Shown: in pieces, positions 15,662 through 24,107 of the stretch | How positions within the stretch are numbered: position 1 is the first letter of the stretch | Layout: every line of letters begins with the position of its first letter | NCBI GenBank assembly: GCA_020632235.1 | Contig: JACKFY010000003.1 | Location: 160,139 to 221,608 of the forward strand | Length of the DNA stretch: 61,470 bases | Reading direction: 5' to 3' | DNA from: Pseudomonadales bacterium | GTDB lineage: Bacteria > Patescibacteriota > Microgenomatia > UBA1400 > PJMF01 | The notes under the pieces: model-generated | Database searches by the model: none | What the model was told of the DNA's origin: nothing | The model's input: only the letters and a program-made list of their open reading frames with translations | Translations under genes and position numbers: made by a program

Positions 15662-15724
15662 TGACCCGCTCCCCTTATACTTGACACTAATTGTAATTAA
15701 AATAGTTGTCAGAAAGGGGGCAAA

Positions 15725-15937
15725 GTGGCAGGAATTTCTAAAGATATTAAGGCCGAAATCATAGCCAAGGTAAAGGCAGGGCAAAAAGTGGCGGATTTAG
15801 CCAAGGCGTATGGAATTAGCACTAAAACCATCTATAACTGGCTGCGAGGTCAAGTAAAAGAGCAGGTGTCTATGGGGAATACAAACGGTAATGAAGAAAC
15901 CAACAACTTAAGGCAAATACTTGAGTTCTCACACTGA
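15725..15937 (+). CDS. IS3-family OrfA (HTH)
   Basis: KVADLAKAYGISTKTIYNW helix-turn-helix. Confidence 0.8.
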   Translation: MAGISKDIKAEIIAKVKAGQKVADLAKAYGISTKTIYNWLRGQVKEQVSMGNTNGNEETNNLRQILEFSH

Positions 15938-16198
15938 ACCAGAAGTCAAAAAAAAGAACAGAAACTAGTACATTACTTTTGGAAGCACTGCCACATCTGG
16001 ATAAAACTCTCTTGGCGGATGCTCTTGGTATTTTAGGTAGTGGTTGTACAAAACAGATTTTATTCAGGTGAAAAAAGACAAGCAGTTAAAGCAACAAATT
16101 GAGGAGGTGTAGAGCCCTCACCCAGAGCAAAGCCAGTTATATGGCTACCGCAGGTTAGCAATTGAACTAGGAGTTGGTAAGAAGGAATTCGCAGATGT

Positions 16199-16826
16199 AT
16201 GAAGAAATATGGCTTGAGGCCATACAAAAGAAAAGCCAGATGGCGAAAAAGAAGAGATGAACAAAGAAAGCCAGTAGCTTTTGCAAACGAGATTAAAAAC
16301 CAGTGTCCACTAGTACCCAACCACACTTGGGCTGGAGATTTTACATACTTGCCATTTAAGGGCAAGTTTATCTACGTAGCTACTTTCTATGGATATTTTT
16401 ACCAGAGAGATAGTGGCTTGGCAAATATCCGATAGACATGACAAAACATTGGTTAATGCAAGCCTTTTAGATGGCTTAGTTAACCGAGACTTCCAGAAAC
16501 CAATATACATCCACTCTGACCAAGGAGCAGAATATTGTTCCCAAGATTACACTTGATTTAGTGAAGAATTTTGGGGTTAGCAATTTCCATGAGTACCAAG
16601 GCTTCTCCCTGGGAAAATGGTTACCAAGAATCCTTTTACAACAACTTTAAAACTGACTTAGGCCTTGAGTTTGACCGCTTCGACGATGAAGGGCACTTTC
16701 TGGAAGCAATACACCACACCCTTTAGAGCTACAACCATGAAAGAATTCACTCTGCCTTGAAAATGCCACCCTCCAGATTCCATGCCAAGTATTTACAATC
16801 CGTGTCTACGAAAAGGGGCGCTTGAC
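16199..16826 (+). pseudogene. IS3-family OrfB DDE integrase core, split by several frameshifts
   Basis: PNHTWAGDFTYL, IHSDQGAEY, PWENGYQESFYNNFK and RIHSALK occur in different frames. Confidence 0.8.
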
Positions 16827-17368: not shown

Positions 17369-17402
17369 ATTACTTTACATATTGGTAAATTTAATAGCAT
17401 TT

Positions 17403-17537
17403 CATATAACGTTTTGCAGCTACCCGAAGGTGGCGATTTCGAAGCACTTCACTGTCAGCTAAGCACAAACTTTGATAGAGGCACAAAGCTTGATTTAACC
17501 ACTGAACCGCCACTTTTGGGTAGGTGCTGTTATGGGC
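17403..17537 (-). repeat. attC-like site 5
   Basis: R'' GCCCATAAC (17537-17529, contains the CPBP stop TAA), R' GTTATATG (17410-17403); arms CTACCCAAAAGTGGCG / CTACCCGAAGGTGGCG, 14/16. Confidence 0.9.
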
Positions 17538-18346
17538 TGGTGTTCTTCTCGCGTTCATTTGTCGCTAAATTTTTTGGCTTAAAAATAATGATTGTCAAAA
17601 TACCCCAAACTGTTATTAAAAATCCCATATAGTTCACGATATTTTTGTCGGCAAGGTCTGCTGTGAATGCGATGTCTATGGTTGAGTGAAAAAAAACAGC
17701 ACAAATTAAAATACTTGCTCTGGATGAGTTGTAAAGCCAAGTCAATAAAATACTTCCTGTCAATAGGCTAAATGTCCAGCCGAATATGCCTGCAAAATCC
17801 ATTGAAGTGTAACCTGGTCTGTAAAAGAAAAGTGGCCAATGCCAAACAGCCCAGAATATTGTCAAAATGATACTTGAAGTCAAAGCATTAAACTTGTCTT
17901 GAAACCTTGGCAATGCAAAACCCCGCCAACCAACTTCTTCTCCAAGTCCAAAGAAGATTAAGTTATAAATGAAAAATGTCAACAAGTTGAATTGAGGAAA
18001 CTCTTTTGAAGTTAAAAGACCCGAAATATTGATAGGCGAGTTATCAACGAAGTAGTTTATGATTGTCGCAATGAAAACGAGTAAGAATGGACTTAAAAGT
18101 GCGATTGCAAAATAAATTAGCGGTCTAACTTGTAAGCACTTTTTAATCAAACTTTTTACACCTTCGTTATTTTGAAACATCCAAGTTGTAAGAAATTAAA
18201 GCCGATTAACGGACCAAGTCCACCAAGTCCGTGGTAATAAGCAAGGTCGGCAAATTTGTCAACCCCAAAATGTGTCCATATAGCGGAAGCCAAATTGTCC
18301 AACTGATTAAATATGCAAGTCCGAAATATGTTATTAGTTGTTTCAT
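17530..18346 (-). pseudogene. Cassette 5: CPBP/Abi (CAAX-protease-like) intramembrane metalloprotease, two 5' frameshifts
   Basis: EEVGWRG, WAVWHWP, H motifs; N-terminus MKQLITYFGLAYLISWTIW starts at 18346 in another frame; stop lies inside R''. Confidence 0.85.
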
Positions 18347-18377: not shown

Positions 18378-18518
18378 GCCCATAACGGTTGGGCGGTAAG
18401 GTATGAGTAGTGGCGGATTACGGAGCACTTTCCTGTCAAGATACGATGAACTTGATGCGAGGTAGAACGCCTGAATACGCTACAGCCCCCGCCATTACTT
18501 ATACACGATGTTATGGGC
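18378..18518 (-). repeat. attC-like site 4
   Basis: R'' GCCCATAAC (18518-18510), R' GTTATGGGC (18386-18378); arms GTATAAGTAATGGCGG / GTATGAGTAGTGGCGG, 14/16. Confidence 0.9.
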
Positions 18519-18537
18519 TGGGCTTCTTTTTCTGTCG

Positions 18538-19581: not shown

Positions 19582-19654
19582 GCCCATAACGGTCGCGTGT
19601 ATGTGGCGTAGCCTGCCGATAGGTGGCTATGACATATACACAGTGTTAGGTAGC
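19582..19654 (-). repeat. attC-like site 3 (short, 73 bp)
   Basis: R'' GCTACCTAAC (19654-19645), R' GTTATGGGC (19590-19582); arms GTATATGTCATAGCC / GTATGTGGCGTAGCC, 12/15. Confidence 0.88.
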
Positions 19655-19669
19655 GTTTTTTTTACTTTT

Positions 19670-20331: not shown

Positions 20332-20467
20332 GCTACCTAACGTTTTGAATATGGTGCGTTTGGCATTTTGAAACACGTCATTTTCAAACTACTATTATTT
20401 TTTATTAATTGCTATAAACTTCATTTTTTGCACTTTCTGCCAAATGCACTATATTTTTGTTAGCTGC
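20332..20467 (-). repeat. attC-like site 2
   Basis: R'' GCAGCTAAC (20467-20459), R' GTTAGGTAGC (20341-20332); arms ATATAGTGCATTTGGCA / ATATGGTGCGTTTGGCA, 15/17. Confidence 0.9.
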
Positions 20468-20472
20468 AGGTA

Positions 20473-21049
20473 TTACTTTAATTCTCTTCCTAATTTTTCA
20501 ACTTTGTTAACCAACTTTTTCTTTTTGTACATCTGTTGAACTTTTAACAGGTCCAAAAGTTGTTATTTTCACGGGTTTAATGCCAACAAAAACTCCAAAA
20601 TCGACTTTTTCATTGAATTATGTCCAGGCTTTTATAAATCAATGAATAATACCAATTTGGTGTGTCAGTCGTTACAATTAATCTTGCAGTTTTTCAGTTA
20701 ATAGTTTTTGAGAACGGTGATTTCTCTTGGTATTCAAAAGCAAATCCAGGCAGAAACAATCTCATCAAAAATCTTTTAACAACGCAGGATAAGTCCCCCA
20801 CCAATTGGGATAAACGAAAACCAAATGATCAGCTTTTGTTATTAAATCCCATACTTTTTGTAAGTCTGGTTCCAAATCTGTTCGTTTTCTGTACCCATAT
20901 TTTAATACAGGCGAAAATTCTAAATCTGTGAGGTTAATAATTTCACATTCTGTTTCGGACTTATCTACTCCTGTTTTGTATTTTTCTGCCAATGAAGTGC
21001 AAAAACTCTCTTTGTCAGGATGTCCATTAATTATCAATATTCGTTTCAT
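20473..21049 (-). pseudogene. Cassette 2: NAD(P)H:quinone oxidoreductase (flavodoxin_2/MdaB-like), several frameshifts
   Basis: ILIINGHP, ADHLVFVYPNWWGTYPALLK; the downstream LFLPGFAF, KTARLIVTTDTP and GIKPVKIT segments lie in shifted frames. Confidence 0.85.
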
Positions 21050-21078: not shown

Positions 21079-21223
21079 GCAGCTAACGTTTGCGTGTATG
21101 AGAAGTTTCGCACACAACCTTAATTTTATCAATTAAATGTGCGAAATTTGGGAGAAAGAAAAAGTGCAACCTTTGAAAATTACTAACGCACTTTTTCTTG
21201 AACCTTATACACGCTGTTATATG
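21079..21223 (-). repeat. attC-like site 1
   Basis: R'' CATATAAC (21223-21216), R' GTTAGCTGC (21087-21079); arms GCGTGTATAAG / GCGTGTATGAG. Confidence 0.88.
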
Positions 21224-21243
21224 ACGTATTGCTCAGACCCCTA

Positions 21244-21840
21244 TTAGTAGAGATTAAATTTGTCTAAATGATCTCTAATTCTAAAAAATATTTTTTTGTG
21301 ACCTTCTGAAGTCGGATGTAAGCCATCGTCTAAATCAGTTTCATTAATTACATCAAAGGTTGGAATAAAATGGACGTTTTGTTGGGATGAAATTTTTGCA
21401 ATTGCTTCATCGTATTTTTTTAGCGTTTCGTTCTTGTAGTACTTTTTCTTGTCACGGAGGTAAACAGCGTTGATTTTTTCCTCATCAACTTTTGTTAAAC
21501 CAACTAAAATAATATGAGAAGTGTAGGATCTGGCCATATCAACAAGCTCTTCAAAATTTTTGATTGTATCTTCGAGATTGACTCTATATTTCTTCTCATC
21601 AGTAAAATACTGTGAATCGTTGCCGGCAATTGCAAAAATTATTATTTCGGGTTTACGTGGCTTACATTCGTTATTAAACCTTTGAAGCAGGTCATTAGTA
21701 TCGTCTCCAGAAATACCAAGGTTAAAAATAAAAATGCCTTTTCCAAGAAGATATCTCTTTAGAAGGTCACACCAGCCGCCTTCTTTAAAGTCGTTCATGC
21801 CGCTGGTAATACTGGCTCCAAATACACAGGCTTTCTTCAT
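21244..21840 (-). CDS. Cassette 1: SGNH/GDSL hydrolase
   Basis: Block I FGASIT, block II NLGISG, block III GND, block V DGLHP; intact. Confidence 0.9.
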   Translation of the reverse strand: MKKACVFGASITSGMNDFKEGGWCDLLKRYLLGKGIFIFNLGISGDDTNDLLQRFNNECKPRKPEIIIFAIAGNDSQYFTDEKKYRVNLEDTIKNFEELVDMARSYTSHIILVGLTKVDEEKINAVYLRDKKKYYKNETLKKYDEAIAKISSQQNVHFIPTFDVINETDLDDGLHPTSEGHKKIFFRIRDHLDKFNLY

Positions 21841-21904
21841 AAAAAATATTTTTTAGAATTGTTTGTAAGATAAACTTTCATTTACGGTTGTCTGAGCAAT
21901 ATTT

Positions 21905-21966
21905 CATATAACACTTGTCTATACGAACCTTTTGTAACTAAAAGTTAGTATAGACAAGATATCAAC
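21905..21966 (-). other. attI-like primary recombination site with adjacent hairpin
   Basis: Core GTTATATG (21912-21905) matches R'' of attC1; no inverse core upstream; perfect 11-bp inverted repeat at 21914-21924 / 21948-21958. Confidence 0.7.
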
Positions 21967-21988
21967 AGTATGATAGTGTTTTATTACC

Positions 21989-22831
21989 ATGGTAAAAACG
22001 GATATTACGAACTTTAGGAAGAAGATGAAGATTCAGCGGTACTCCCCTCGTACCGTCAAAATATACTGCTCGCATGTTGCGCAGTTTTTCGCACATAGAC
22101 AACTGCAACCGAATCAAGTCACAAAAATAAATATCGAAGAGTATGTAGCGTTTTGCATTGACCAGAAAAACATCGCGTTTTCAACCCAAAAAGGCATCGT
22201 GGGTGCAATCAAGCTCTTTTACACATTATGCTATAACAGAAACCTGCACATCGACTACATCTACCCCAAACGAAAAGAGTATAAGATGCCCACAGTACTC
22301 TCACAAAATGAAGTAGCCCTACTACTCAACGCGCCCACAAATCTCAAACATAAGACAATCTTAAGCCTTATATACAGCTGCGGACTCAGGCTCTCGGAGG
22401 TTGTCAATCTCAAAATAGCAGATATCGACTCAGCTCGCATGCTGATTCACATACGGGCAAGTAAAAATAACCGCGACAGAGACGTGATGCTCTCGCCCAA
22501 AATTCTCACACTGCTCAGAAGTTACTTTGCAGAGTACAAACCGACGGTTTATTTGTTTGAGGGGCAAAAAAGAGGCAAGTACTCCACTCGCTCTGTGCAA
22601 AAAGTTTTCAAAATAGCACTCGCAAATTCAGGCATCCAAAAGAGCGCGAGCGTGCATACTCTTCGTCATTCTTTTGCAACACATATGATAGAAAACGGCA
22701 TAGATGTACGCGTTGTCCAAGAGCTGCTCGGGCACAAAAATATCCAGACTACCCAACTCTACACGCACATCACTACCCACATGAAATCAAAGATAAAAAG
22801 TCCCTTTGACACGTTGCTTGCCTCAACTTAA
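21989..22831 (+). CDS. Tyrosine recombinase, integron-integrase-like (short form)
   Basis: N-terminal SAM-like region (YSPRTVKIY); catalytic R (YSCGLRLSE), K (SKNNRDR), HTLRH, LLGH, TTQLY; divergent from the cassette array. Confidence 0.92.
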   Translation: MVKTDITNFRKKMKIQRYSPRTVKIYCSHVAQFFAHRQLQPNQVTKINIEEYVAFCIDQKNIAFSTQKGIVGAIKLFYTLCYNRNLHIDYIYPKRKEYKMPTVLSQNEVALLLNAPTNLKHKTILSLIYSCGLRLSEVVNLKIADIDSARMLIHIRASKNNRDRDVMLSPKILTLLRSYFAEYKPTVYLFEGQKRGKYSTRSVQKVFKIALANSGIQKSASVHTLRHSFATHMIENGIDVRVVQELLGHKNIQTTQLYTHITTHMKSKIKSPFDTLLAST

Positions 22832-23229
22832 CCCACTCTCCCACCCGCCCGCACCGCCAACTCATCAGCCTTTAGCAGCTCTTTGAGCTCATCGAGTGTT
22901 TTTACATCCTTTGGCGGCCGGATAAACCTATCAATAGTAAACTGCACCTCTTTGCCATATACCTCACCGTCAAAATCAAGGACGTAAACTTCAAGCACCT
23001 GGGTCGTCTCCCCCAGCACGTAGCGAGGGCCGTAGTAGAGTCCCCCTACATACTCTTGTCCTTCCAAGATTAGTTGAGAAGTATAGACTCCCGGCTTTGT
23101 ACTGCGGGGAATGCTATGAGCATCAAGGTTAAGCGTGGGGTACCCAATGGTTCTACCCAACTTCTGCCCAGCAAACACGTGGCTGCTGTACCACACTACG
23201 TGCTTCTCCTCCTGATCTGCACCCGCCAT
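22828..23229 (-). CDS. Stand-alone riboflavin kinase (RibF C-terminal domain only)
   Basis: GQKLGRTIGYPTLN, GVY, LEVYVLDFDGEVYG, FIRP; no FAD-synthetase domain. Confidence 0.88.
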   Translation of the reverse strand: MAGADQEEKHVVWYSSHVFAGQKLGRTIGYPTLNLDAHSIPRSTKPGVYTSQLILEGQEYVGGLYYGPRYVLGETTQVLEVYVLDFDGEVYGKEVQFTIDRFIRPPKDVKTLDELKELLKADELAVRAGGRVG

Positions 23230-24107
23230 AAACTGAAAAATACTAAGCCTGCACCAAGAAACTGAGTGTTGGTGAGTGTTTTATCAAAATACATATAGTC
23301 TATAGCCACTGCTGAAACTGGCCACAGTAACTCAAACAGCGTTGCTACTCGCGCAGGCGTATGCTTGAGCCCTGTGTAGTAAATAAGCAAGCCCACCATG
23401 CCAGCTGAAAGAGCTATAAGTAAGATGGCCTGCATCTGGACAGCAGTTACACTGAGAAGTTCTGGTGTTTTGCCCAACAGCACAACAAGAATACCTGCCA
23501 TCACGGTAGTCAGTCCAAAGCGCATCACTGTCGAGGTAAGCGCTGAGGTGGTGTTAAGCACCATCTTACTAATTACCGTTGAGGAGCCCCAACACGCGGC
23601 TGCACCCAGTGCCATCAGTGCTGCTAGAAGCGTTGCAGTATTTCCCTGTGTGTTGAGAGTGAGAGTAGGAAATGAAAGCAAGTACGCACCTATCAGAGCC
23701 AGCACCAGCCATACATAAAACTGCTTGTTCACCTGCTCTTTGAGCATAAATCGAGCCAAGACAACGACAAACAGCGGCTGGAGCTGTTGGAGTAACACCA
23801 CTACCGAGTACTGAATGTACTCCACTTTGCCAAGTGCCGCCGTGTAGAGAACTGTGCCCAGAAGCCCAGAGAAAAAAGCAACAACGGTCATTGTCATCCA
23901 GTTTTTTCTTGAAACTGTCTTGATTTCTGAAAGCCAACGAGGAGCTGTAAGGAGCAACAGTGTAAGGCCAAACAGATGCTCTAAAAACACTAATACCAGA
24001 GGTGATAGAGTGTACAACTCACGACGGAGCACATCATCAAAACTCCATACAATGGCCGCACACGCAACAAGAAAAGGGGCAACTGTTTGTATGCGGGTGG
24101 CATTCAT
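23196..24107 (-). CDS. EamA/DMT family transporter (possible riboflavin importer)
   Basis: 10-TM duplicated EamA pattern (LQPLFVVVLARFMLKE; ELLWPVSAV); overlaps the riboflavin kinase start. Confidence 0.85.
   Translation of the reverse strand: MNATRIQTVAPFLVACAAIVWSFDDVLRRELYTLSPLVLVFLEHLFGLTLLLLTAPRWLSEIKTVSRKNWMTMTVVAFFSGLLGTVLYTAALGKVEYIQYSVVVLLQQLQPLFVVVLARFMLKEQVNKQFYVWLVLALIGAYLLSFPTLTLNTQGNTATLLAALMALGAAACWGSSTVISKMVLNTTSALTSTVMRFGLTTVMAGILVVLLGKTPELLSVTAVQMQAILLIALSAGMVGLLIYYTGLKHTPARVATLFELLWPVSAVAIDYMYFDKTLTNTQFLGAGLVFFSLWRVQIRRRST

Follow-up and report, generated by a model that had tools for sequence, protein, structure and literature searches.

We report that the 45-bp palindrome at positions 21914-21958 of the window (i.e. 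the whole stretch of 61,470 nucleotides that was analysed) is, as judged by alignment with related loci, the L box of an attI site together with an inverted copy of that box, and hence a part of attI and neither a separate element nor the whole primary site. The site belongs to an active-looking cassette platform apparently run by a recombinase without the extra domain of the integron integrases, and its docking site has a definable and conserved anatomy. About a quarter of the sites in this family have such a foldable inner arm, abutting or overlapping the predicted promoter of the recombinase gene. Our preferred reading, to which we assign a probability of roughly 45%, is that the palindrome would be a recombinase-binding accessory or operator arm of attI.

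The palindrome as part of attI

The palindrome is real and exceeds what chance would give. The original prediction described a hairpin whose stem has one mismatch and one bulged base and whose loop reads GTAACT, and both the sequence and a shuffle-tested fold agree with this description. The arms CTTGTCTATAC (21914-21924) and GTATAGACAAG (21948-21958) make up a perfect 11-bp outer pair that starts one base past the AAC at 21910-21912 (GTT on the cassette strand); further in, AAC pairs with GTT and TTTT with AAAA, with a G.A mismatch (21925/21947) and a bulged C (21929). For the 76 nt at 21900-21975 the predicted single-stranded DNA fold has a free energy of -13.3 kcal/mol compared with -3.98 +/- 1.83 for 200 dinucleotide shuffles (z -5.09; 0/200 as stable), and the 52-nt core folds at -12.0 on the plus strand (z -6.6) and -11.3 on the minus strand (z -6.1), with 0/200 shuffles as stable in each case. 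Inverted repeats with perfect 11-bp arms and a gap of no more than 30 nt number three in the 61-kb window and 36 in the genome (870,622 bases, 95% complete), the mean for 20 block-shuffled windows being 0.2; the three are the palindrome itself, one inside attC1 and one around 44787. The last is the sole other repeat of this class that lies outside the integron-like region of the window. The arm pair of the palindrome has a single occurrence in the genome. An independent short-read assembly of the source sample has no difference from the window across 21909-23300, which excludes assembly errors as the source of the mismatch and the bulge. Intrastrand pairing has clearly shaped the sequence, because the filler between the two arms is self-complementary as well, leaving a loop of 4-6 nt. 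Extension of the stem into the flanks was considered and found unconvincing, as only ATAT with ATAT can pair and AACA is left bulged, and no Rfam family matches at the palindrome site.

The features to the right of the array are as follows.

21902-21912, plus strand: R box of attI, TTTCATATAAC (cassette ends that match their own attC R'', a contig branch, relatives)
21914-21928, plus strand: L box of attI and left arm of the palindrome, CTTGTCTATACGAAC (consensus match, AAC-N13-AAC spacing)
21914-21958, no strand: imperfect palindrome, 45 bp (sequence, fold, inverted-repeat counts)
21944-21958, plus strand: L*, the inverted copy of the L box and right arm of the palindrome, GTTAGTATAGACAAG (complementarity to L)
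21951-21956, plus strand: predicted -35 element TAGACA, inside L* (5/6 against TTGACA, 17-nt spacer to the -10)
21959-21966, plus strand: ATATCAAC, in the predicted promoter spacer, about where relatives have a second L-type box
21971-21979, plus strand: predicted extended -10 element TGATAGTGT, at +59 (TGnTAnnnT motif)
21989-22831, plus strand: Xer/IntI-like tyrosine recombinase of 280 aa without the IntI-specific (I2) insertion (profiles, structure alignment)

The recombinase matches Pfam Phage_integrase (9.2e-42) and Phage_int_SAM_4 (7.5e-13); it scores 219 bits against NCBIfam XerA_Arch (cut-off 220) and 196 bits against the integron-integrase model TIGR02249 (cut-off 265), the latter match being in two stretches. 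Aligned with VchIntIA (2a3v), residues 8-181 correspond to 8-182 and 200-274 to 244-318, and as the recombinase has 18 residues in place of the 61 of IntIA, it lacks the region of the IntI-specific insertion; of the features by which an integron is recognized, an integrase with the IntI-specific domain (I2) is thus absent. The nearest solved structures are those of archaeal XerA, 5hxy (1.2e-41) and 4a8e (2.4e-37). The genome also encodes two further tyrosine recombinases at other loci. In contigs of two other studies we found pieces of the recombinase gene, one with 0 differences and one with a single difference.

Homologs with flanking DNA were collected from genome contigs (40 loci with 35-59% identity over the best segment, nearly all from Bacteroidota and kin), metagenome contigs (46 loci), 300 other Patescibacteria genomes (matches in 42), 4 genomes from a nested second phylum-level search and 80 genomes of the family or order of the window (matches in 7). 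No close relative was among them, the best identities being 49-51% for the genome and metagenome contigs, 44% for the 300 Patescibacteria genomes and 43% for the 80 family and order genomes; among alignments spanning the greater part of the protein, 49% was the maximum. Frames continuing some 100 residues upstream (the longer Bacteroidota form), partial matches and loci with less than 150 nt of upstream DNA were dropped before counting; 56 of 114 loci were kept in addition to the window, together with 16 of 18 stretches fetched later. In a quick tree the recombinase of the window groups with Bacteroidota short forms without strong support, and a tree uniting it with every Patescibacteria row could not be rejected (p-AU 0.143 after removal of three long-branch rows). 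As an observation in its own right, the protein groups weakly with Bacteroidota short forms, and in its docking site and promoter geometry the locus conforms to the Patescibacteria type.

The attI of the window reads TTTCATATAAC, ACTT, GTCTATACGAA, i.e. inverted R and L boxes around the crossover and beside the recombinase gene, and the same R/L design and spacing are present in 35 related Patescibacteria loci, in which the crossover AAC is followed by the L box 3-16 nt on and by the predicted promoter about 40-70 nt on. In matching loci the L box is always at +3 to +16, 2-4 bp from the crossover triplet. The AAC-N13-AAC spacing of the window is that of its relatives, many of which have TTTC(A/G)TATAAC or a close variant at the position of the R box, and the family L box with its left flank is an inverted and slightly longer copy of the R box (TTTCGTATAAC compared with GTT..TATGCGAA). 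After the AAC the L box of the window agrees with the family consensus at 10/15 positions (1/200 shuffles as good). The consensus is found in 31 of 73 short-form loci (no more than 2/200 shuffles as good for each), namely in the window and 30 of the 43 Patescibacteria loci compared with 0 of the 29 loci from other phyla; among the family and order relatives, five of seven further loci match it. On these alignments the left arm of the palindrome is the L box of attI. The right arm, L*, can pair with the L box of the window at 12 of 13 positions, which was equalled in 0/500 shuffles.

The crossover (R) box lies outside the stem and has no pairing partner in the palindrome, and for this reason the palindrome is not an attC-like site; on the same ground we rejected its reading as an attC remnant. 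Past the stem comes ATATCAAC, which repeats the end of the R box in direct and not in inverted orientation, instead of the GTTATATG that pairing would require. The original prediction pointed to this place as a second GTT-initiated motif on the minus strand (GTTGATAT, 21966-21959); the motif is indeed there, but its position is the spacer of the predicted recombinase promoter. A canonical attI is double-stranded and without secondary structure of its own, whereas here the L arm is one half of a palindrome with a predicted fold at z -5 to -6.6.

The cassette array and the junction in use

The setting that the original prediction took for granted, a divergent tyrosine recombinase beside a co-oriented cassette array, is confirmed. 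Five units on the minus strand run away from the recombinase gene, each ending in an attC-like palindrome, so that co-oriented cassettes with imperfect palindromes ending in AAC and GTT, as expected of an integron, are present.

21216-21912, minus strand: cassette 1, with a GDSL-type hydrolase ORF at 21244-21840 (Pfam Lipase_GDSL_2, 3.4e-24)
21085-21238, minus strand: attC1 (-25.7 kcal/mol, z -5.09, 0/200 shuffles as stable; TAAC and GTTA ends pair)
20339-20470, minus strand: attC2 (-17.7 kcal/mol, z -3.62, 0/200)
19588-19655, minus strand: attC3 (-14.1 kcal/mol, z -2.17, 4/200)
about 18384-18520, minus strand: attC4 (-18.0 kcal/mol, z -1.04, 33/200, no stabler than shuffles)
17408-17545, minus strand: attC5 (-22.3 kcal/mol, z -2.28, 2/200)

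In all five predicted attC folds the TAAC end pairs with the GTTA end and there is a long inner stem, and asymmetric internal loops are predicted between the R and L stems; in attC4 the ATAAC and GTTAT ends pair in addition to a 16-bp inner stem. Stability relative to shuffles is clear in two of the five, moderate in two and absent in one.

Cassette 1 extends from the attI junction to the R'' side of attC1 (GTT at 21216-21218, plus strand). Its ends form a 24-nt inverted repeat (21215-21238 with 21890-21913) that is 92% complementary, and 21 of 24 positions match in the comparison of cassette ends. When the 5' ends of the cassettes are compared with attC R'' ends, each end and its own R'' share runs of 9-10 nt on the diagonal and 4-5 nt off it, two pairs of units that share a core being the exception off the diagonal. 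Such matching along the diagonal is, as a sequence pattern, the signature of exchange at G/TT. The contigs of the source run (Logan) bear on the same place: two of them end at 21938, one carrying cassette 1 of the window (depth 14.8) and the other fitting the window only over 21901-21938, with two differences, and being otherwise unlike it (depth 11.3); a third starts at 21909 and runs through the recombinase gene with 0 differences (depth 26). We interpret the 30-base overlap and the additive depths as a branch in the assembly graph, and on that reading the source population has at least two left-hand contexts that part just left of 21909, the contigs being evidence of presence only. The branch coincides with the predicted cassette boundary 21912/21911, and a loose contig end at 21086, i.e. 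at the next junction, points the same way. The junction that the original prediction placed at 21912/21911 (G/TT on the minus strand of the cassettes) is therefore backed by the cassette-end and attC matches as well as by the contig branch. Because two alternative left-hand contexts meet one junction, our data suggest that cassette exchange is ongoing in the source community.

Several further observations concern the array. Its G+C content is 31-39% compared with 47-50% for the background, and a piece of cassette 1 is present without difference in contigs of a third other study. Over the core of attC1 (21141-21224) the source run reaches a depth of 88-175, up from about 15, and contigs of two other studies cover this core and then diverge at 21141, 21195 and 21224; since the depth rises and the contigs continue into unlike sequence, the attC1 type is common to many different cassettes in activated-sludge communities. 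In cassette 2, a short-read contig of the source run differs from the window over 20500-20800 by ten indels of 1-2 bases and two substitutions, so that the frame breaks in the flavodoxin-like/FMN-reductase gene there (94-aa fragment at 20765-21049) may be errors in the assembly of the window and not signs of a decayed gene. Within cassette 1 there is a perfect 20-nt inverted repeat (21277-21296/21841-21860) with a core, AAAAAATATTTTTT, that is itself palindromic; one copy immediately precedes the GDSL start codon and the other is near the 3' end of the gene. The unit past the fifth attC starts at 17399-17410 with GTTATATGAAAT, which equals the first 12 bases of cassette 1 and the family R-box consensus, as expected if the original outer half of attI had been pushed outwards by successive insertions. 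Past the array, at 15700-16800 on the minus strand, the frames look broken and the G+C content climbs stepwise, and this region possibly represents what is left of a decayed mobile-element gene at the distal end of the array.

Recurrence of the inverted copy and the predicted recombinase promoter

The regions upstream of homologous recombinases were compared, as the original prediction had proposed, and a repeat capable of forming a hairpin at the attI position recurs: 8 of the 31 anchored, and hence comparable, loci have an inverted copy of their own L box (complementary at 11 or more of 13 positions, with no more than 1/500 shuffles as good for each). The copy follows its L box at a distance of 5 nt in five loci and of 6 nt in a sixth; L097 has a gap of about 12 nt and the window one of 17 nt. 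Across the eight aligned loci 92.8% of the cells are paired, compared with 31-51% for slid controls; this percentage is circular, the loci having been chosen for complementarity, but the compensatory changes are not. Of 14 pairs, eight are changed on both sides, the mean for shuffles being 4.2 and 0/500 reaching as high, which at the level of sequence shows that each inverted copy follows its own L box and not the family consensus. Five loci added later fall below the ungapped threshold, and one of them, L143, looks palindromic by eye if one additional base is allowed for. On the recombinase tree the loci with a palindrome do not cluster (7 changes for 8 rows; mean for shuffles 7.7, with 118/500 as low), and the palindromic state has for this reason been gained or lost many times.

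All eight locus hairpins have z values from -4.4 to -9.6 on the recombinase-sense strand, and this strand is the stabler in six of the eight, equal in one and less stable by 0.1 in one. Seven of the eight predicted folds leave three to six unpaired loop bases, and three of the four mismatches within the arms are G.T pairs on the recombinase-sense strand. At L120:311-350 the palindrome includes the crossover AAC and the far-side GTT, so that a full R-L-loop-L-R hairpin resembling an attC is predicted in the place of attI (-16.9 kcal/mol, z -9.6).

The trinucleotide TTC is found exactly 5 nt past the L box in 11 of 36 loci, compared with approximately one estimated from base composition. In six of these 11 the remainder is not complementary to L and resembles the R box (TTCATAAT, TTCGTAAT). 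An R-like box at +16 to +40, with one mismatch allowed, is not enriched among the non-palindromic loci (3/23 compared with 2.3 expected).

Strong inverted repeats before the recombinase gene are also present outside the Patescibacteria, in three loci in which they are different in kind and were not pooled with the above: a perfect 18-bp pair with its right arm over the start codon (L017:2964-3010), a 27-nt pair ending at the start codon (L012:2945-3000), and 30-nt arms 69 nt apart with ATATAAC at the start and GTT at the end (L008:1229-1357).

Between attI and the recombinase gene, the motif TGnTAnnnT occurs at +45 to +80 after the AAC in 19 of 31 loci compared with 2.6 expected from shuffles, and in 15 of those 19, the window included, this putative extended -10 is at +59 to +62, usually with a TTG-type hexamer 16-18 nt before it. 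The ATG (21989) of the window is 9 nt past the -10 element, and in L110, L115 and L123 the distances are 6, 6 and 9 nt, suggesting that the recombinase message would be of the leaderless type; the absent ribosome-binding site would be explained by a message with almost no leader. A standard consensus scan of 21700-22200 returned 0 promoter-like and 0 terminator-like sites.

A second and direct L-type box (TATRYGAA) is present at +49/+50 in 15 of the 23 non-palindromic loci, where 1.8 would be expected; the best match in the window has two mismatches and is at +46, 3 nt off. Only two of the eight palindromic loci have this second box as against 15/23 (Fisher p 0.097, the loci not being independent), a hint that L* may stand in for it. 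The overlap of L* with the -35 is particular to the window, and in the loci with a distance of 5 nt L* ends about 7 nt before the -35. Loci with a palindrome and loci without one do not differ in how far the -10 is from the AAC.

Candidate roles and comparison with known systems

Among the three roles that were originally put forward, i.e. a structured primary site, a recombinase operator and a cassette promoter (Pc), the operator fits best. We infer that L* would have arisen in place as an inverted copy of L, filling the space up to and including the -35, and that the recombinase would bind L and L* on duplex DNA with L* acting as an accessory arm comparable to DR1 and DR2 of attI1. Occupancy of attI would then lower transcription of the recombinase gene (autoregulation), because L* covers the predicted -35. 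In favour of such binding to the duplex, the left arm is a recombination box conserved in the family, whose members as a rule have additional copies of it near the promoter, the direct second box tends to be missing from palindromic loci, and the TTC at a fixed offset of 5 nt suggests a sequence motif and not only a structure. Several findings argue against it: the variable distance between L and L* is not what a protein pair at a set geometry predicts; the inverted copy keeps its place relative to L and not to the promoter; L* tracks the locus-specific letters of L, although nothing would oblige binding sites to do so if they were independent; the promoter is predicted from motifs and has no counterpart in the standard consensus scan; and the R-like box is not enriched in the non-palindromic loci. 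Moreover, L and L* face each other by their outer ends, and this geometry, which is not known to support cooperative binding by tyrosine recombinases, also counts against the duplex.

It is unlikely, though still a serious contender, that L and L* instead pair on single-stranded DNA, chiefly on the bottom strand of the cassettes (the plus strand here), such that a recombinase without the IntI domain would meet the L box of attI as a hairpin, much as in attC, and the palindrome would be a structural part of the primary site. The compensatory changes (8/14 pairs on both sides, 0/500 shuffles) speak for this, as do the varying spacing with loops that nevertheless stay short, the longer gap of the window being filled by self-complementary sequence, and the complete hairpin of L120; the greater stability of the recombinase-sense strand (6/8) and the G.T mismatches on it (3/4) are in the same direction, both weakly. 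However, the R box, where the cut would be made, is unpaired in the window and in six of the seven other palindromic loci, so that the cleavage site would stay single-stranded, and 23 of the 31 loci have no inverted copy. The percentage of paired cells is circular, as noted, the sign test of about 0.13 makes the strand bias a weak one, and L-type and R-type boxes show the G/A difference in general as well. Template-switch correction of near-palindromes would furthermore give the same compensatory pattern without any function. This process is the core of a further explanation, which we consider improbable, where a chance or ancestral partial repeat was perfected by template switching into a harmless by-product without a function of its own that happens to supply a usable -35. 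The scatter on the recombinase tree is expected under frequent gain and loss, the unchanged distance from AAC to the -10 indicates copies made by in-place replacement and not by insertion, and the palindromic filler between the arms of the window is what a single templated event would leave; against this, TTC exactly 5 nt past the L box in 11/36 loci is far above the approximately one estimated, repeated appearance at the same box needs some bias, and the copy holds the best available -35 of the window and would thus at least have been co-opted.

The TATACT hexamer facing the cassettes, to which the original prediction drew attention, is present on the minus strand (21952-21947), and the site is flanked by divergent genes, a setting in which operators are often found. 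Nonetheless, we consider it very improbable that the palindrome is a Pc promoter, a terminator or an operator bound by some host regulator that has no relation to the recombinase. The proposed Pc did not hold up: the hexamer has no TTG-type -35 16-18 nt before it and no TG directly before it, and 21700-22200 gave 0 promoter-like sites. For a terminator, the stem is A+T-rich with no T run after it on either strand, the same interval has 0 terminator-like sites and Rfam has no match; for a host operator, the left arm is the conserved recombination box of the family and not a private sequence. We therefore retain the accessory or operator arm bound by the recombinase as the preferred reading. A broader and quite doubtful proposition is that the docking site of platforms without I2 can be a folded single-stranded site, in which case the hairpins of the window and L120 would be stages of a continuum from attI to attC; if so, cassette insertion could be a reaction of hairpin with hairpin, and this would inform ideas on the origin of attC and on the emergence of single-strand recombination from Xer-type enzymes.

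To our knowledge attI has been treated as plain double-stranded DNA in all integrons studied, and the extra domain of IntI is held to permit the use of folded attC sites. In attI1 the L and R boxes and the direct repeats DR1 and DR2 are bound by IntI1 and crossover is in the GTT of the R box (PMC4792948); attI is treated as the double-stranded partner in PMC2095811, and the I2 element of IntI, of roughly 20 residues, is described as being used for extrahelical attC bases (PMC4792948). Like attI1, the site of the window is beside the recombinase gene, has its crossover in the GTT of the R box and an inverted L box a few bases in, and has more box copies towards the gene. Unlike in attI1, the extra copy is inverted, complementary to L and foldable and overlaps the predicted recombinase promoter, and the recombinase is without the I2 element of IntI. 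With attC the palindrome shares its imperfection (mismatch and bulged base), an arm that starts near AAC as do the L arms of the attC sites in the window, and a TAT-rich core present in four of these; it differs in its length (45 nt compared with 68-154 nt for the attC sites of the window), in having no R'' partner and in a crossover that is outside the stem. The inverted boxes that are 5 nt apart in five related loci, and 6 in a sixth, resemble Xer core sites (dif; XerA, XerC/D, XerH), although the arms in the window are 17 nt apart compared with a central region of 6-8 bp in the Xer/dif core, and the junction is at the R box and not between the arms.

The main text of the paper on archaeal integrons, in which archaeal IntIs have the domain, is silent on Patescibacteria platforms, and our full-text literature search returned no description of a Patescibacteria integron-like platform with a recombinase without the extra domain. 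The present sites provide short DNA substrates for asking whether an Xer-like enzyme acts on folded sites and whether attI binding feeds back on the expression of the enzyme itself. In integrons a LexA operator lies over the integrase promoter, inside the gap between attI and intI. The arrangement in the window would likewise place an operator over a promoter, the candidate operator here being composed of the recombinase's own recombination boxes. As a whole, the platform is without the integrase by which integrons are defined and yet has the sites that define them.
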